39,240 bases of DNA from Deltaproteobacteria bacterium (lineage in GTDB: Bacteria; JAEEML01), in NCBI GenBank assembly GCA_016283195.1, contig JAEEML010000077.1, positions 1 to 39,240 on the forward strand. The letters are read 5' to 3'. The translations under genes were made by a program, and so were the position numbers. Under the pieces are notes generated by a model. That model searched no databases and was not told where the DNA came from. It saw nothing but the letters and a program-made list of their open reading frames with translations. Positions 11,024 to 30,827 of this stretch are shown piece by piece (the stretch's first letter is position 1; every line of letters starts with the position of its first letter).

Positions 11024-11545
11024 TCACCCTATTTTTTCGATAATACTGCCCTCGCCCAGGCTTGTCAATAGCGCGGCGGCTATTTCGCCCACCTTCCTGG
11101 CAAAACCCGGCAAAATGAGCTCCGGCGCCAATTCGGCCAGCGGCACCATCACAAAGGGGCGGCCGCTCATGCGCGGATGTGGCAAAGTGAGGCTCTTACT
11201 ATTTATAATAATAGTATCAGTTACGAGCAAATCGAGATCAATAGTGCGCGGGCCGTTAAGCTCATGCTTTTGGGGCCGCCCCAGCGCAATTTCTATTTGC
11301 TGCATCTCTGTCAAAAGAGCCCGCGGGCTGTTAGTATGCTTTATTTCTATCACCGCGTTATAAAACGGCGGCTGCGCCACCCCGCCCCAGGGCAGAGAGC
11401 GGTATAAAGCCGACTTAGCCACTATTTCGTGGCCGAGAGCTTCCAACATCGCGGCGGCCTCTTTAAAAGTATTTGGCACATCGTCGATATTGCCGCCCAA
11501 AGCTATATAACTAATATGATTATTATTTTTATAGACAGGCGCCAT
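11024..11545 (-). CDS. folK: 2-amino-4-hydroxy-6-hydroxymethyldihydropteridine pyrophosphokinase
   Basis: YIALGGNI, FYNAV, GPRTIDLDLL, LTLPHPRM..RPFV..PLAEL. Start position uncertain. Confidence 0.93.
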   Translation of the reverse strand: MAPVYKNNNHISYIALGGNIDDVPNTFKEAAAMLEALGHEIVAKSALYRSLPWGGVAQPPFYNAVIEIKHTNSPRALLTEMQQIEIALGRPQKHELNGPRTIDLDLLVTDTIIINSKSLTLPHPRMSGRPFVMVPLAELAPELILPGFARKVGEIAAALLTSLGEGSIIEKIG

Positions 11546-12746
11546 TTTTGCAATCACCTGGACACTTTTCCTCAAAATTAAAGAAATAATAAGCTCCGTC
11601 CATGGCTTTTCGGCACTCTATTCCGTAGATAAATTTAAATTTATTATCACCGCTGCCACCGGTAGAACATTCGCTATAACCGGCTTCAGTATCATCAGGT
11701 GTACAGGGGCTCACACAATCTGAATAACCTTTATTAAGCTGGCGGCAGAGAGGCATTCCCATGCCTTCTTCGCCTTTACCGCACTCAATAGATACCCAAT
11801 CGTTCGTTTCTGTCGAGCAGTAATAGAGCGTATTTTGTGCACAAAGGTCATCACTGGTTTGATAATCGCAAGTGCCGCTGGGGAGGCTATCAACATCACA
11901 AATACCATTTTTGCAAAAGTTCTTACACTCGGTGGTCTCATGAAAATAGTGATATTTATTGTCATTGCCAAGACGGCATACATAATTATCAAGCGCCTTG
12001 CCGGAAGCCGCGCAACCGTAGGTATCATTTTTGTTACAATCCGTCACGCACTGGGGCATAAAGTCGCCATAAAGTTTTGAGCACTCTGTGCCGCCGCCGC
12101 AGGTATGCCTCGTAACCACCGCCCCTTCACAGGTATAATAGGAATTACCATAACAATCGGGCACAAATTCGCCTGGCTTGCAAGAGGCGCCTTCTTTGGG
12201 AGGCGGCGATTTCAAACACTTGCCATCCCGGCAACCATACTCACAGGGGTTATCGGTAAAAGAAAATTCATAATAGCTGTCAGAGCCTTGCACTTTCATG
12301 CAAAAATGGGTGGATATATATTTGCCTTCGCAGGTATGATATTCTTCAAATTCGTTGTAATCACAAGGCATTACACAATCAACAAAGTTATCTTCAAGGA
12401 GTTTTTGGCAAGTGAGCCCGCTAGCTAATTTATTGCAATCACGAACAGTTAAAAGCCCCTTGGCGCCACAAAAATGGGCTACATTATCTTCATCACAATA
12501 TTCTTGATACGTAGAATCACAGGGCTCGGTAAGCACCACATCAACGCCGTTATAAGGCTCATCATCATCATCGCTTTCCTGATCATCGGTTATGGTATCA
12601 GGCGGGGATTTATCACTCTGCCCATCCGCCGGTGCCACATGAAGCGGCCCCGTTTTATCGGTCTTAGGCTTAACATCATTTTTACAAGCTAAAACCAGGA
12701 AAGGAAGAGACAGGGAGAGAAGAAAAAGCTCTTTTGATTGGCGCAT
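11529..12746 (-). CDS. Cysteine-rich lipoprotein with three 12-Cys repeats
   Basis: Lipobox LVLAC, acidic linker, then three ~100-115 aa units each with 12 Cys and ending CxxxCxxGxC. Confidence 0.8.
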   Translation of the reverse strand: MRQSKELFLLSLSLPFLVLACKNDVKPKTDKTGPLHVAPADGQSDKSPPDTITDDQESDDDDEPYNGVDVVLTEPCDSTYQEYCDEDNVAHFCGAKGLLTVRDCNKLASGLTCQKLLEDNFVDCVMPCDYNEFEEYHTCEGKYISTHFCMKVQGSDSYYEFSFTDNPCEYGCRDGKCLKSPPPKEGASCKPGEFVPDCYGNSYYTCEGAVVTRHTCGGGTECSKLYGDFMPQCVTDCNKNDTYGCAASGKALDNYVCRLGNDNKYHYFHETTECKNFCKNGICDVDSLPSGTCDYQTSDDLCAQNTLYYCSTETNDWVSIECGKGEEGMGMPLCRQLNKGYSDCVSPCTPDDTEAGYSECSTGGSGDNKFKFIYGIECRKAMDGAYYFFNFEEKCPGDCKNGACL

Positions 12747-16567: not shown

Positions 16568-16609
16568 TTTATATACTATAAGCATTAGCTGATTTTATTG
16601 AGGTTAAAC

Positions 16610-17485
16610 ATGAAACGTTCTCTATTTATTCTCTCTCTTATATTGGTTATCGGCTCCGTTACTGCCTGCCGCGACGATAAGAAGCCTACCGAGGAGCCAA
16701 AACCAGGCACCAAAGATACCTCTACCGATGCCACTGCCGAGTGGCGCGAAGCTTGTGCTAAAACCAGCGGTCACTATTTTGACTGCGCCACGGCTAAAAG
16801 CGGTGAATCGGTTATTTTAACCTGCGATAACAGCAAATTTGTCCAAGCGGCTTACTGTTATGAAAACAGCACTTGCTCTATGGACAAAGAGAAAAACGAA
16901 GCTGTCTGCGGTTGCAACACCGGCTATGATTTAACAGCCAATAATGGCGGTTATTATTGCAAACAGCGCGATGATTATCCGCAAGAAGTTTTTAAAAACT
17001 GCGCCGATAGTGCCAGCGACCACTCCGCTTGTGTAACCAGCGGCTCCGATGTCTGGGCTGTGGATTGCTTTGATGGCAAGCCTTACGCCAATGATGGTAC
17101 CGGTAACTGCACAAAATTAAACAAAAAATGCAGTGAAGTTATTTACCAAAACGGCATTTTCCACGAATGTGTCGATTGTCTTAATGATAACGATTGTACC
17201 GTGCCCAGCGACCTTGATTACGAGCATGCCGGCGCCGTCTGCAACAACGGCACCTGCCTCATAGGCTGCGAATTCGGCTGGAAATACAGCTTTGATGAAG
17301 ATCTGGAAGAGGCTTCATGCGAAAAGATTAAAGATCCATGCCATAAATCGAGCGACTGCACCAACACTATTCCCCATTCTGTAGGTATTTGTAATAATTT
17401 TGCCTGCGAATATGCCTGTGTAGAGGGCTGGAAAAATGTTTGGAACGAAGGCGTTTGGTCCTGCGAGGAAGAAATTAAAGAGTAA
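16610..17485 (+). CDS. Cysteine-rich lipoprotein with EGF-like modules
   Basis: Lipobox VTAC; CYENSTC...VCGCNTGY...YC; two C-terminal 6-Cys repeats. Start ATG 16610 after GAGG. Confidence 0.75.
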   Translation: MKRSLFILSLILVIGSVTACRDDKKPTEEPKPGTKDTSTDATAEWREACAKTSGHYFDCATAKSGESVILTCDNSKFVQAAYCYENSTCSMDKEKNEAVCGCNTGYDLTANNGGYYCKQRDDYPQEVFKNCADSASDHSACVTSGSDVWAVDCFDGKPYANDGTGNCTKLNKKCSEVIYQNGIFHECVDCLNDNDCTVPSDLDYEHAGAVCNNGTCLIGCEFGWKYSFDEDLEEASCEKIKDPCHKSSDCTNTIPHSVGICNNFACEYACVEGWKNVWNEGVWSCEEEIKE

Positions 17486-26883: not shown

Positions 26884-26999
26884 CTTTCTGCCAACACCTC
26901 CGCCAAGAGCCTTAGCACATTTTTTGGCTTTTCGCCCTAGTTTTTCGGCGCTTTTTAAATATCCTGGCCCTGGAGCCCGCCTCAGAAGCAAAACCAAGC

Positions 27000-27087
27000 A
27001 AAATACTCTGCGCACTGCCCAAGATTTTAGAAAAAAATACTTTGCGCACTGCCCAAGATTTTGCTAAAAAATACTTTGCGCACTGCC
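27000..27087 (+). repeat. 34-bp tandem direct repeat (about 2.6 copies) upstream of the AAA ATPase gene
   Basis: AAAATACTCTGCGCACTGCCCAAGATTTTAGAAA / AAAATACTTTGCGCACTGCCCAAGATTTTGCTAA / AAAATACTTTGCGCACTGCC; period exactly 34. Confidence 0.95.
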
Positions 27088-27100
27088 TCCGGAGGGAGTT

Positions 27101-28465
27101 ATGGAAATCGCCAGAAAAGCCTATAGTAAACTGCAAGAATGGAAAAACTCTTCACAGGGGAAAAGTGCCATCATGCTTGAAGGTGCCCGGCGCATCGGCA
27201 AATCCACTCTGGCCATGCGCTTCGGCAAAAACGAATACAAGTCACATATTCTTGTTGATTTCAACAATGTTTCCCGCCAAATCAGCGAAAATTTTGCTAA
27301 TAACCTAAACAATCTTGATCTCTTTTTTCAAATTCTTTCGCTGGAATACAATACGCCTTTATATAAAAGAAATTCCCTGATTATCTTTGACGAAATTCAA
27401 AAATTTCCGCGGGCACGCGAGGCCATAAAGTACCTGGTGGCCGATGGGCGCTACGATTTTATCGAAACAGGCTCCCTGATTTCCATCAAAGAAAATGTCA
27501 GCACAATAACCATCCCTTCCGAAGAAGAAAAGCTGAAAATGTACCCATGCGACTTTGAAGAATTTGCTGGAGCACTGGGTGAGGAGCTTTTGCTGCAATA
27601 CATCGCTAAATGTTTTAAGGATCGAGTTCCTTTGGAGGACCATTTTCATAAGCGGGCTTTATGGCTTTTTAAAGAATATATGTTGGTGGGCGGTATGCCG
27701 CAAAGTATAGTAGCCTACCTGGAAAACGGCCGCGATTTTGCCAAAAGCGATAAGGAAAAGCGCAAAATTTTGGACCTTTATCGCGATGACATCAAAAAGG
27801 CTTCCAAGCGCTATAGTTCCAAAGTTGCCGCTATATTCGACAACATTCCCGGCTACCTTTCCACTCATGAAAAGAAAGTGGTTTTAAAGGAGATCGATGC
27901 CTCAAAAGCTGCGAGCTTTTCCAAATACGATGAGCCGCTCTTTTGGCTTGGCGATTCCATGATTTGCAACCTCTGTTACAAGTGTAACGACCCCAATATC
28001 GGCTTTGCGCTTAATCAAAACGATGCAGCCCTTAAATGCTATATGGGCGATACCGGCCTGCTTATGAGCCTCGCCTTCAGCGAAAACGAAATCGCTTCAA
28101 ATAATCTTTATAAGGCTATTATGAGCGGCAAACTCTCGCTTAATGCCGGCATGCTTTATGAAAACGCCATTGCCCAAATGCTCAGAGCCGGGGGGCGAAA
28201 ATTATACTTTTATACAGAATACGACGCAGAAAAGCACCGTAATTCCATGGAAATAGATTTTTTACTCTCCAATGAAAGCCCGACAAATTTCAAAATCTAC
28301 CCGGTGGAAGTAAAAGCGGCCAAAAATTACACCACCACATCGCTAGGCAAATTTAAAGCCAAGTTTAAAAAACGGGTCGGCGCGTCCATCATCATCCACC
28401 CCAAAGCCTTGCAAGTTGCCGATGATATTCTGAAAATCCCGCCTTATATGACCTGGTGCCTGTGA
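27101..28465 (+). CDS. AAA_14/DUF4143-type ATPase with C-terminal PD-(D/E)xK-like motif
   Basis: Walker A GARRIGKS, Walker B LIIFDEIQ, ETGSL, YMLVGGMPQ, K.YMGDTGLL, GMLYEN, EIDFLL...YPVEVK. Confidence 0.88.
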   Translation: MEIARKAYSKLQEWKNSSQGKSAIMLEGARRIGKSTLAMRFGKNEYKSHILVDFNNVSRQISENFANNLNNLDLFFQILSLEYNTPLYKRNSLIIFDEIQKFPRAREAIKYLVADGRYDFIETGSLISIKENVSTITIPSEEEKLKMYPCDFEEFAGALGEELLLQYIAKCFKDRVPLEDHFHKRALWLFKEYMLVGGMPQSIVAYLENGRDFAKSDKEKRKILDLYRDDIKKASKRYSSKVAAIFDNIPGYLSTHEKKVVLKEIDASKAASFSKYDEPLFWLGDSMICNLCYKCNDPNIGFALNQNDAALKCYMGDTGLLMSLAFSENEIASNNLYKAIMSGKLSLNAGMLYENAIAQMLRAGGRKLYFYTEYDAEKHRNSMEIDFLLSNESPTNFKIYPVEVKAAKNYTTTSLGKFKAKFKKRVGASIIIHPKALQVADDILKIPPYMTWCL

Positions 28466-28478
28466 TGGTGGCGGCGCG

Positions 28479-28856
28479 TTACCATACAACTGGTACTTCA
28501 TATTGCGGAATCATCATATCTTTGGTAATTATAGCCAGTTTTTCTGTCAATGCCTGGCAAATAATCAAACGATCAAAAGGATCATTATGTATTTTAGGCA
28601 AGTCTTTTAGAGCGTCTAAATGCTGTGATTTTATAGGTAAAATTAAAATGTCTTTTTTAACACAAAGCTGCTCTATCTGAGTAATTGAAAAATCTATATC
28701 CAATTTTCCGATACTATGCTTAATCGCAATTTCCCAAAGTGAGGCAACACTGGTAAATATACGCTCTTCATTATTAATGATTTCGCGTGCTTTTGCGGAA
28801 AGCTCAACTGCATCACGTAAATACCACAAAAGGGCATGAGTATCTATAATATACAT
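28479..28856 (-). CDS. vapC: Type II toxin-antitoxin PIN-domain (VapC-family) toxin
   Basis: IIDTHALLW, SVASLWEIAIK, HNDPFDRLIICQA; TGATG coupling to the upstream small gene. Confidence 0.9.
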   Translation of the reverse strand: MYIIDTHALLWYLRDAVELSAKAREIINNEERIFTSVASLWEIAIKHSIGKLDIDFSITQIEQLCVKKDILILPIKSQHLDALKDLPKIHNDPFDRLIICQALTEKLAIITKDMMIPQYEVPVVW

Positions 28857-29071
28857 CACATATATTCCTTAAAGCAGTCAGGCGTCTCATCAAAATCCTC
28901 CGCCATATAAAATTTGCCAGTAAGCCCTCCCGGCTGGCGACGGTTCTTTTTTTGAGCTGTAGCCAGGGGTGCAGAAATATTCATTATATTGGCAATATAA
29001 GCCAGAAGATGTAGCTGCTCTTCAAAAGAGAACATTTTAACTTGATTTTCAACTTGCGCCATTGTTAGCAT
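28856..29071 (-). CDS. Putative antitoxin (DUF2281-like)
   Basis: 71 aa; C-terminus RRQPGGLTGKFYMAEDFDETPDCFKEYM is typical of partners of this PIN subfamily; overlaps the toxin start. Confidence 0.8.
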   Translation of the reverse strand: MLTMAQVENQVKMFSFEEQLHLLAYIANIMNISAPLATAQKKNRRQPGGLTGKFYMAEDFDETPDCFKEYM

Positions 29072-29304
29072 CCCTTTATCCTCCCTTTATATTTTTTACC
29101 ATGCACATTGCATATTTGCCAGAGCTTTTATTCTGGCTTAGCCCCACTTGTGCTACTCACTCTCCCAGCTTTTTTAAGCTTTTAGGAGCAACATACATCA
29201 TGTTCAGTTCAGTTTAGTCGTGATAATTAATTATAACATATACTCCAAATTTATTCAATCCACAAATTGTGATTTTTGCAATAATTTTGCACCAATAGCG
29301 GTGT

Positions 29305-29704
29305 ATTACCTGTTATGCTAATACCGATCCCAAAATGGCGATACTGATTTTGTTGAAAAATATGGCTGCATTATACTTGGGAAGATGCCATGAAAGTGTG
29401 CCCGGCCGGGTGGCATTTACCATCCCAAAAAGGACTAAATAGCTTGGCAAATTTGGGTGCCAAAGCTCTCTGGGATTCCAGCTTTGCCGGTGGCGATGAT
29501 CCTTATGGCTTCGCGGCCTTGCCCGTCGGCGCCTACTACATCTACACCAAAAGCTACTACCATTTCGGGAAGAGCGCCTACTTCTGGTCGAAAACGAGCG
29601 CCGATGATTACAACGCATACTACATGAACATTAGCACCAATGTGCTCATATCCAGCTCAGGTACGACGTACTACACCTACTCGGTTCGCTGCGTCAAGAA
29701 CTAG
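29305..29704 (+). pseudogene. Frameshifted Fibrobacter succinogenes major paralogous domain (FISUMP, CLec-fold) gene with a DGR VR-like 3' end
   Basis: Across frames it reads ITCYANTDP / NGDTDFVEKYGC / YTWEDAMKVCPAGWHLPS...YGFAALPVG...AYFWS...YSVRCVKN*. Two apparent 1-nt deletions (near 29332 and 29370); no N-terminus found. Confidence 0.8.
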
Positions 29705-29898
29705 AACTGAGTAGCCGCCTTTGGGAAAAACCTCCGCTAGCGGTGTGGCCTTTCTTTTCTTAACTGCAATGCCCGTTTTTATGATTCTTTTCCTTGATTT
29801 TATTCTTTTTTTCTTTGTAGGGAAGAGAACCGCCGCTCACGGCTTCGCCTGGCGCTCTGTTTCTCTTCCACACTCCCCTTCTTTCCTCCAGCCGCAGA

Positions 29899-29922
29899 CT
29901 TAAGGGAATGCGTTCCCTTAAG
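29899..29922. terminator. Perfect hairpin between convergent transcription units (terminator-like or REP-like)
   Basis: CTTAAGGGAA-TGCG-TTCCCTTAAG, a 10-bp stem with no clear U tract. A second stem GGAAGAGAA...TTCTCTTCC lies at 29821-29869. Confidence 0.4.
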
Positions 29923-29981
29923 AATCCTCGCAAGGTGCCAGTTTTCCATGTTTTTGGTAAAATACCTGTTTGCCTTTAAAC

Positions 29982-30047
29982 GGAGCCCCTCGCCGCCTGG
30001 GAGAGGGGCGATTTTCAATGATTTTCACTACTTGAGGAGGTGAGGTC
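29982..30047 (+). repeat. REP-like palindromic intergenic repeat, copy C
   Basis: GGAGCCCCTCGCCGCCTGGGAGAGGGGCGATTTTCAATGATTTTCACTACTTGAGGAGGTGAGGTC; matches the copies at 1-48 and 63-127. Confidence 0.85.
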
Positions 30048-30050
30048 CGC

Positions 30051-30827
30051 TTAGCCGGGGCTGCCGGCGGAGAGGTCTGAAAAGTGCTCCCGTCCCAGCA
30101 TTTTAAGCACTTCTCTTGTATATTGCCCGGGCTTTTCAAAAATCAAGAGCGGCGGCTCAACAGTTAGCGTATCGCGGCCATCGCCGCGCAAAAGTTGCAA
30201 AATAACCCTGCCGGCTTCCTCATGGGCAAAAGAGTGCACAAAACGCATTTTGCGCACCTTTAAGCCGGCTTCCCTGGCTGCTTTACACAATTTAATGAGC
30301 GCCTCGGCGGGAAATATCATATAAGCCCGCCCTCTGGTGGCAAGCATCCGGGAGATAGCTTTAAACCAGTCAGCCGGTGTCTCCCCAGCTCCGTGGCGGG
30401 CCAGGCGCCGCTGCTCATTGGGGGAAGTTGGCCCTTTTTGAAAAAAAAAGGGCGGATTGGAGACAATAAGATCAAAAGAGCGCTCTTTTAACGGCAGGGA
30501 GCGCACATCGGCGGTGAGCACATTATATTTTTCCGGGCCAAAGTGGTTCAGTTCAGCCGATTTTTGGCAGCACTCCACCATCTCCGGCAAAATATCAATA
30601 GCTGTCACCTTTTGGGCTTTTTCAAAAAGGAGCAGCATCTGGCCGACAATGCCGCAGCCGGCTCCCAAATCGAGAGCATTAGCGCTGCCTTCGGTTACTG
30701 AGCGGGCCAAAATCACCGAATCGAGATTAAAGCGGTAGCCCTTTTCGGGCTGCATAAATAAAAGACGGCCCTCAATCATCGCATCAGTGGTGAATGAGGG
30801 CCGCTTAGTATCCAGAGCTTGTGTCAA
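30051..30827 (-). CDS. SAM-dependent N6-adenine methyltransferase, tRNA1(Val) m6A37 (TrmM/YfiC)-like
   Basis: QPEKGYRFNLDSVILA, LDLGAGCG, DLIVSNPPFF, RRLARH. Confidence 0.82.
   Translation of the reverse strand: MTQALDTKRPSFTTDAMIEGRLLFMQPEKGYRFNLDSVILARSVTEGSANALDLGAGCGIVGQMLLLFEKAQKVTAIDILPEMVECCQKSAELNHFGPEKYNVLTADVRSLPLKERSFDLIVSNPPFFFQKGPTSPNEQRRLARHGAGETPADWFKAISRMLATRGRAYMIFPAEALIKLCKAAREAGLKVRKMRFVHSFAHEEAGRVILQLLRGDGRDTLTVEPPLLIFEKPGQYTREVLKMLGREHFSDLSAGSPG

Follow-up and report, generated by a model that had tools for sequence, protein, structure and literature searches.

A set of FISUMP (Fib_succ_major) gene tails, including one in the analysed stretch of 39,240 nucleotides (the window), very probably originated from a DGR in one form or another. 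In DGR rewriting, errors are introduced at template adenines and the resulting cDNA is integrated. The explanation rated slightly above even has the tails written by a FISUMP-type DGR, over at least two template generations, before that DGR was lost; we infer that the targeting was in trans. The copy in the window is a dead relic, which matters only as one dated member of the family.

Codon pattern of the tail and its paralogues

The codon composition of the window tail was examined at positions 29531-29701 of the forward strand, a region of 57 codons. The counts given by the sequence-only reading were reproduced, with 34 codons ending in C and all 12 tyrosine codons being TAC. From the amino acids of the tail and the codon frequencies in 1,323 long ORFs (TAC fraction of Tyr 0.28), 19.1 C-ending codons would be expected compared to the 34 observed (P = 1.1e-5, z = 4.47). 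The same z was reached by 21 of 12,156 non-overlapping 57-codon windows of long ORFs, many of which lie in housekeeping-type genes as judged by eye, so that C-richness alone is rare yet neither unique nor diagnostic. The 47 in-frame codons upstream of the tail were unremarkable (16 of 47 ending in C, z = 0.19). The earlier statements that the tyrosine codons just upstream are TAT, and that TAT is common across the window, both held: the two upstream codons are TAT, and twenty window genes contain 119 TAC and 218 TAT codons.

The gene was confirmed as encoding a FISUMP domain (PF09603, E = 1.6e-13; TIGR02145, E = 1.3e-17), and the two scaffold motifs that had been named were located on the forward strand at 29582-29590 (FWS, whose TGG is present in all 20 aligned tails) and 29681-29695 (SVRCV). 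The latter is an invariant 3' scaffold in the paralogue alignment and a candidate homing-initiation-site region; the stretch matching it is identical in the template repeat (TR) and variable repeat (VR) of the complete DGR L016 described below. The stop codon comes after the domain, placing the tail at the 3' end of the gene. No hairpin was found after the window stop codon (z = 0.39). GNA-triloop hairpins were found 3' of C126 and C187, and no 3' hairpin was common to all loci (C-numbers denote contigs of the genome and L-numbers loci extracted for analysis).

The genome is a bin of 3.2 Mb on 190 contigs with a completeness of 100% and a contamination of 4.18%. It gave 116 matches to PF09603, of which 113 on 62 contigs were analysed after exclusion of three fragments, and 111 yielded a tail. 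Some of these domains are C-rich in the last 55 codons only. When the tails were aligned by codon, positions 1 and 2 took all four bases and the third base was fixed per column as C or T, with near-pure NNT columns (two columns with T in 19 of 20 tails) beside NNC columns. The pairwise mismatch at codon positions 1, 2 and 3 was 0.46, 0.41 and 0.28 in the 13 most C-rich tails, compared to 0.37, 0.37 and 0.56 upstream in the same domains and 0.59, 0.56 and 0.66 in other terminal tails. Because these 13 tails were chosen on C content, the later tests either hold C content fixed or use held-out tails. An inverted pattern, defined as a third-position mismatch of 0.30 or less that is at least 0.1 below positions 1-2, was obtained for 44 of 6,213 tail pairs compared to 0 of 5,778 upstream pairs. 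No near-identical pair was present among the aligned tails within the genome.

Codon-level profiles split the tails into two families, A (training tails in C126, C136, C187, C96, C18, C31, C46 and C92) and B (C2, C97, C72, C78, C142, C175 and two in C86). Seven of the eight training members of family A had 0-6 mismatches at 92-95 fixed sites. In this family the third-position mismatch falls at the PAG motif from 0.51-0.67 to 0.15-0.22, so the sharing of bases is confined to the tail. Leave-one-out scoring with C-matched nulls gave 20 imprinted tails out of 111, on 19 contigs, at cut-offs of score ≥ 95 and z ≥ 4.6 that were set after the list was seen; two further tails passed on score alone. 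The families were picked after inspection of the data, and the C-matched null carries an offset (control z up to 5.6, at low score). The suggestion of a dispersed paralogue family with common invariant positions was thus borne out by about 20 imprinted tails across the contigs of the genome. By eye, 10 genes whose N-terminus is intact and signal-like account for 11 of the 20 domains; those of C116, C72 and C78 are plainly remnants, and the others are cut or uncertain. The remnant at C72:5596-5745 consists of the tail alone, and in that at C78:2681-3013 a deletion joins the CPAG motif to a later PAG motif with the variable tail kept in frame. At C86:1488-2594 there are two tandem domains, one of them internal to the protein, which are approximately 91% alike upstream and have very different tails, both of family B.

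The small genome G638, from the phylum of G206, was used as a negative control only, as it is not close to the genome under study (SecA 66%). It contains 36 FISUMP matches, of which 30 domains (L028-L057) were used, and two genomes of the same genus contain none. None of the 30 tails reached a score of 95, one having a z of 5.6 at a score of 44, and none of 435 tail pairs passed even a looser cut-off of 0.35. The control had no PF00078 (RT) match, and the RT of L016 matched 0 of 13 genomes of its family at 1e-15, in a search that had no positive control. G638 therefore appears to be a FISUMP expansion that carries neither DGR marks nor a template imprint. Its tails were nevertheless more divergent than the bodies of the genes (0.58/0.57 compared to 0.42/0.39).

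A scan of the metagenome collection with an adenine-blind motif of family A gave eight loci, five known tails and the three unbinned contigs L008, L012 and L013, all of which are variable repeats. The held-out tails fitted family A closely. In L008 0 of 94 fixed non-A sites differed (0 of 68 outside the search motif) and in L012 1 of 94 (1 of 68). L008 and L013, which come from two assemblies, have identical tails, while the 5' part of L013 is 91% identical to the C68 gene. L013 thus looks like a recombinant, or could be an assembly chimera, and tails may therefore also spread independently of an RT.

The window tail was in the training set of neither family. When it was fitted at fixed sites, 6 of 70 fixed non-A sites of family B differed, five of the six being changed to A, compared to 21 of 87 fixed sites of family A. 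Its score of 112.8 was reached by 0 of 150 recodings in each of three nulls, with maxima of 35 for genome usage, 73 for C-boosted usage and 102 for within-tail synonymous shuffling, and its z of 8.8 was the third highest of the 111 tails. The tail is peripheral within the set, with a third-position mismatch of 0.33-0.50 to the other top tails in global alignment, and fits family B only with indels. These fits, together with those of the held-out tails, support the earlier suggestion of a DGR-type variable repeat, which is placed here at 29522..29701 (+ strand) and comes nearest to template family B. The bias of the tail is best read as a template imprint rather than a codon bias. Variation only at would-be template adenines, as expected of a variable repeat, was read from the paralogue columns rather than from a TR/VR pair; since the template itself was never seen, adenine specificity is deduced from these columns. 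By the target-side tests that were run the window tail appears to behave as a DGR target, and it is not classifiable within a complete DGR.

A broken FISUMP copy in the window

The sequence-only reading had missed that the window gene is broken. The residual ORF at 29390..29704 (+ strand) encodes 104 amino acids covering the C-terminal two-thirds of a FISUMP C-type-lectin-fold domain (PF09603, TIGR02145), with no signal peptide. The PF09603 match begins at profile position 64 (64-187 of 187), and roughly 50 residues at the start of the intact C126 domain have no counterpart in the ORF. Pairwise alignment to L013 and C142 and three-frame translation revealed a broken 5' remnant at 29305..29371 (+ strand) in two other frames (ITCYANTDPK / GDTDFVEKYGC), with single-base gaps near 29335 and 29368 that give two frameshifts.

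Further upstream, an element at 29206..29308 (+ strand) has 13 other copies of 70-92% identity by blastn and is likely to be the promoter or leader of FISUMP lipoprotein genes. A lipoprotein-like start codon lies 27-30 nt past the copy of this element in C43, C182, C113, C68 and C92, while in the window the element is fused straight to mid-domain coding sequence. In L013 there are 478 nt between the element and the sequence that abuts it in the window, indicating that about 480 nt are deleted in the window copy. The window gene thus has neither the start codon, the signal peptide nor the complete domain of an intact lipoprotein gene, and is read as a 5'-deleted, doubly frameshifted pseudogene. 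As a pseudogene, it is a relic and no active target. Contigs from sequencing run X1 were identical, with 0 differences, to 28847-29299 and 29276-29474. An assembly slip is unlikely to lie behind the breaks, and X1 may be the source sample.

As for the earlier description of the gene as a remote, trans-diversified target, the window copy is a pseudogene, and no ongoing diversification was seen in the low-depth contigs. X1 and X2 gave no coverage of the core of the window tail (29520-29670), and the sequencing runs contain 6-19% of the words of the window. One low-depth contig of X1 was identical to the C126 tail over 155 nt. Of the 34 sites at which contigs from three other runs differ within the C126 tail, 29 were at codon positions 1-2, compared to 3 of 3 at position 3 upstream of the tail; this shows the pattern and not activity, since the contigs are mostly other paralogues. 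No contig from the sequencing runs that aligned to the C126 tail resembled a template.

Several other features of the window were recorded. A REP-like non-coding repeat at 29820..29950 (no strand assigned) has blastn copies on many contigs and contains a hairpin with a 10-bp stem at 29899-29922 (DNA fold z = -2.5); it may or may not be part of the variable-repeat system. Such REP-like hairpin repeats (29820-30080, many contigs) recur across the genome, often 3' of FISUMP genes. A near-identical 3' flank is common to C142 and C92, whose tails belong to different template families. An AAA_14/DUF4143 ATPase gene and a PIN-domain gene at 27101-28859 adjoin the FISUMP relic between mutS and a methyltransferase gene, a region that looks like a small variable island. 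Three tandem near-copies of a unit of about 32 nt were found at 27042-27100, between the start of mutS and the AAA ATPase gene (approximately 26998-27092). Cysteine-rich lipoprotein-like genes with no significant Pfam match occur at 11529-12746 and 16598-17485.

A related complete DGR and the search for machinery

The template-form motif deduced from the tails of the genome had one match among 185,579 genomes. This was the complete DGR L016 (L016:751-5216) in a Bacteroidales MAG, consisting of a 616-aa FISUMP target, a 177-nt template, a 236-aa accessory gene with no Pfam or NCBIfam match, and an RT with GNLTSQ and YVDD motifs. All 16 of the 16 TR/VR mismatches are at template adenines. Outside the searched motif, the template has AAC then AAT exactly where the tails show NNC then NNT before FG. 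When the TR region was compared with the genome by blastn, 10 of the 11 best matches fell among the 20 imprinted loci. L016 and the tails have the same PAG...FW...SVRC span, with AAC/AAT in the varying columns of the 5' half, and the TR/VR homology of L016 begins close to the PAG motif where the sharing among the tails begins. L016 differs in being a cis cassette with one adjacent target. Its template has a mismatch to the best tails of at least 26% at non-A sites, making it a relative of the missing templates and not the template itself; compared with the window tail it showed little A bias (non-A 42/113, A 25/55). The L016 genome has four further, weaker matches to the template on other contigs.

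The protein structure was modelled for the intact paralogue domain of C126 (pLDDT 98); the window ORF lacks the N-terminal third. Superposition of the C126 model gave a Z of 10.2 with InvE (rmsd 2.9, 109 aligned), 9.2 with the Treponema DGR target TvpA (rmsd 3.4, 137 aligned) and 9.0 with the C-terminal domain of Lcl (rmsd 2.1, 93 aligned). The intact paralogue is accordingly predicted to have a C-type-lectin fold, with the variable tail at the 3' end of a gene of this kind as in DGR targets. No solved structure was matched by sequence, Foldseek returned nothing at E ≤ 0.001, and an Atlas search returned FISUMP clusters only. Searching longer proteins with the window ORF gave 11 matches at 29-38%, which were uninformative.

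The earlier proposal that the responsible DGR lies elsewhere in the genome was not sustained, as the 190-contig assembly yielded neither a DGR-class RT nor an Avd or template, and the metagenome contigs that were scanned yielded no template either. There were three PF00078 matches. L001 (L001:1111-2319, on C156) is a UG26 RT (9.7e-151) and L003 (L003:3-572, on C108) its contig-cut paralogue; each lies downstream of a similar gene of 160-166 aa with no NCBIfam match. L002 (L002:1108-2448, on C172) is a distant UG26-like RT of 446 aa, the best PADLOC match of which is UG26 at 5e-30; it has no close class and lies directly after an MXAN_5187 C-terminal-domain gene. The RT of L016 found only the L002 gene in the genome by tblastn, at 23%. 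The Avd profiles NF033474 and PF22296 had 0 matches in the genome and the L016 accessory protein none by tblastn; since the latter matches neither Pfam nor NCBIfam, such profiles can miss this accessory class.

The check proposed earlier, a BLASTN search of the assembly, gave no template copy. Of 44 AAC-rich windows in the genome none among the top 40 was FISUMP-like, and adenine-wildcard matching of four tail pieces to the genome gave A-rich low-complexity sequence as the best non-self matches. No FISUMP-like template was found near the UG26 or UG26-like RTs or elsewhere in the assembly. The template-form motif, predicted to fit both families, had 0 matches in the metagenome collection, which holds contigs of this organism. 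Template-form motifs gave 0 matches to A or B templates in the viral and genome collections, and the adenine-blind motif 0 matches in viral contigs. A variant template may escape exact-match motifs of this kind, and in a bin of 190 contigs a cassette with at least ten near-copies flanking it could fail to assemble.

Origin and significance of the imprinted tails

In the favoured explanation, an AAC/AAT-rich template RNA would have been reverse-transcribed by a DGR RT that made errors at adenines, and the cDNA would have been pasted in trans into many dispersed FISUMP genes, in at least two template generations. Selection would have retained Tyr/Ser/Gly-rich binding tips on surface lipoproteins. 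The cassette would later have been lost, whereupon the tails froze and some copies decayed, that in the window either afterwards or in parallel.

A DGR could instead have escaped assembly, or reside on a plasmid or prophage that the bin does not include, and continue to rewrite the intact paralogues in trans, the window copy alone being dead. The tails of family A are very clean, in the training set as in the held-out tails with 0 and 1 differences, which would mean that they were written recently. The bin also misses at least two VR-bearing contigs (L008 and L012), the tail of C18 runs into the contig end and 32 of the 113 domains lie less than 1.5 kb from contig ends. This explanation is nevertheless considered unlikely. 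The adenine-blind motif of family A would match a template too, yet all eight of its metagenome matches were variable repeats, and the template-form motif found nothing for A or B in the same collection. An RT gene is unique sequence that normally assembles. The tails of L008 and L013 are identical across two assemblies, and that of C126 is identical to X1 over the 155 nt compared.

Diversification could also have occurred in cis at one or two loci, by a DGR here or in a donor, followed by spread of the finished tails through gene conversion, recombination or transfer. L013, with its C68-like 5' part and L008 tail, is what such spread would produce, the paralogues share upstream and downstream repeats, and the available text of PMC7517822 and PMC10907252 describes duplication or dispersal of DGR targets in cyanobacteria and Thiohalocapsa. 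However, the sharing starts at the PAG motif, near the start of TR/VR homology in L016, while the gene bodies are near third-position saturation, and the copying of finished tails predicts near-identical pairs, none of which are present among the aligned tails of the genome. We regard spread from cis-diversified loci as improbable.

A further possibility is that no retroelement was involved, the pattern coming from a donor's C-rich codon usage, named earlier as the reading that would stand if the DGR were refuted, combined with protein-level selection on the ligand-binding tip. The 21 of 12,156 windows with equal z would be in keeping with it, as would the FISUMP tails that diverge more than the bodies even in the control genome. 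This explanation appears very improbable and already largely refuted, as the bias ends at the PAG motif, NNT columns are retained over many different amino acids, the C-boosted and synonymous nulls each gave 0 of 150, and the control family gave 0 of 435 such pairs. That a resident non-DGR RT, either the UG26 pair or the distant UG26-like enzyme, rewrites the tails is scarcely credible: these are the sole RTs in the bin and UG26 has no established role in the available text of PMC9226505 (that of 10.1101/2024.11.15.621889 adds nothing), but they carry GSPLSP and GSPVAN instead of the GNLTSQ of the L016 RT, L001 falls squarely in the UG26 class by its match, and a FISUMP-like template is absent near them and throughout the assembly.

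The imprinted tails may be compared with known systems. FISUMP/DUF1566 targets form DGR category 'd' or CLec2 (DUF1566, DUF823, Fib_succ_major), for example Legionella LdtA, in the available text of PMC5758913. The genome resembles this category in the FISUMP domain, the C-terminal variable repeat of about 180 nt, the NNC/NNT codons between fixed scaffold residues and, in intact paralogues, the lipoprotein-like N-termini; it is unlike it in that no RT, accessory gene or template of such a system was detected and in that the window copy is a pseudogene. As far as the text available for each source goes, Treponema denticola has 7 non-adjacent DGR targets, the maximum given (PMC5758913), Thiohalocapsa PB-PSB1 has 15 targets at 9 loci with trans activity (PMC10907252), cyanobacteria have remote, dispersed targets and the remnant all3226 (PMC7517822), and a MAG survey lists 43 FISUMP targets with up to six targets per genome (PMC11661182). 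The Treponema, Thiohalocapsa and cyanobacterial systems as there described likewise have dispersed C-type-lectin paralogues on one template, several template classes and some silent loci, but an RT and a template, at least one of each, remain in those genomes, whereas about 20 loci in two families, within the set of 116 domain matches, stand here with neither found. RT-anchored DGR surveys miss remote targets, according to the available text of PMC8144416. The literature searched gave no account of orphan FISUMP repeats in a Myxococcota-like genome; similar cases may be listed in Table S1 of PMC5758913 or in the tables of PMC11661182.

A more far-reaching proposal, which we hold tentatively, is that one DGR lineage rewrote the binding tips of at least twenty unlinked, lectin-like surface genes in trans over at least two template generations, giving an antibody-like repertoire, and that the machinery was transient, being mobile or lost after use, and left a dated record in the family of 116. 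If so, the number of targets would exceed the 7 and 15 of the published systems, and the record would be readable with no RT at hand. The mechanism is already known, while the scale of about 20 loci and the orphan state are new or unusual. Orphan paralogues were by themselves sufficient to reconstruct a template with which a real DGR could be retrieved among the genomes searched. This suggests that episodic hypermutation, with later loss of the machinery, can build part of a large FISUMP family.

The host looks Myxococcota-like and deep-branching, judging by its MXAN_5187 C-terminal gene and a SecA core 66-69% identical to genomes of that group. It has no close relatives among 300 genomes, where full-length SecA reached at most 60%. 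FISUMP matches were found in 1 of 30 random genomes returned by the relatives search and in 3 of 401 genomes from the phylum of G206, the best of which was the control genome G638.
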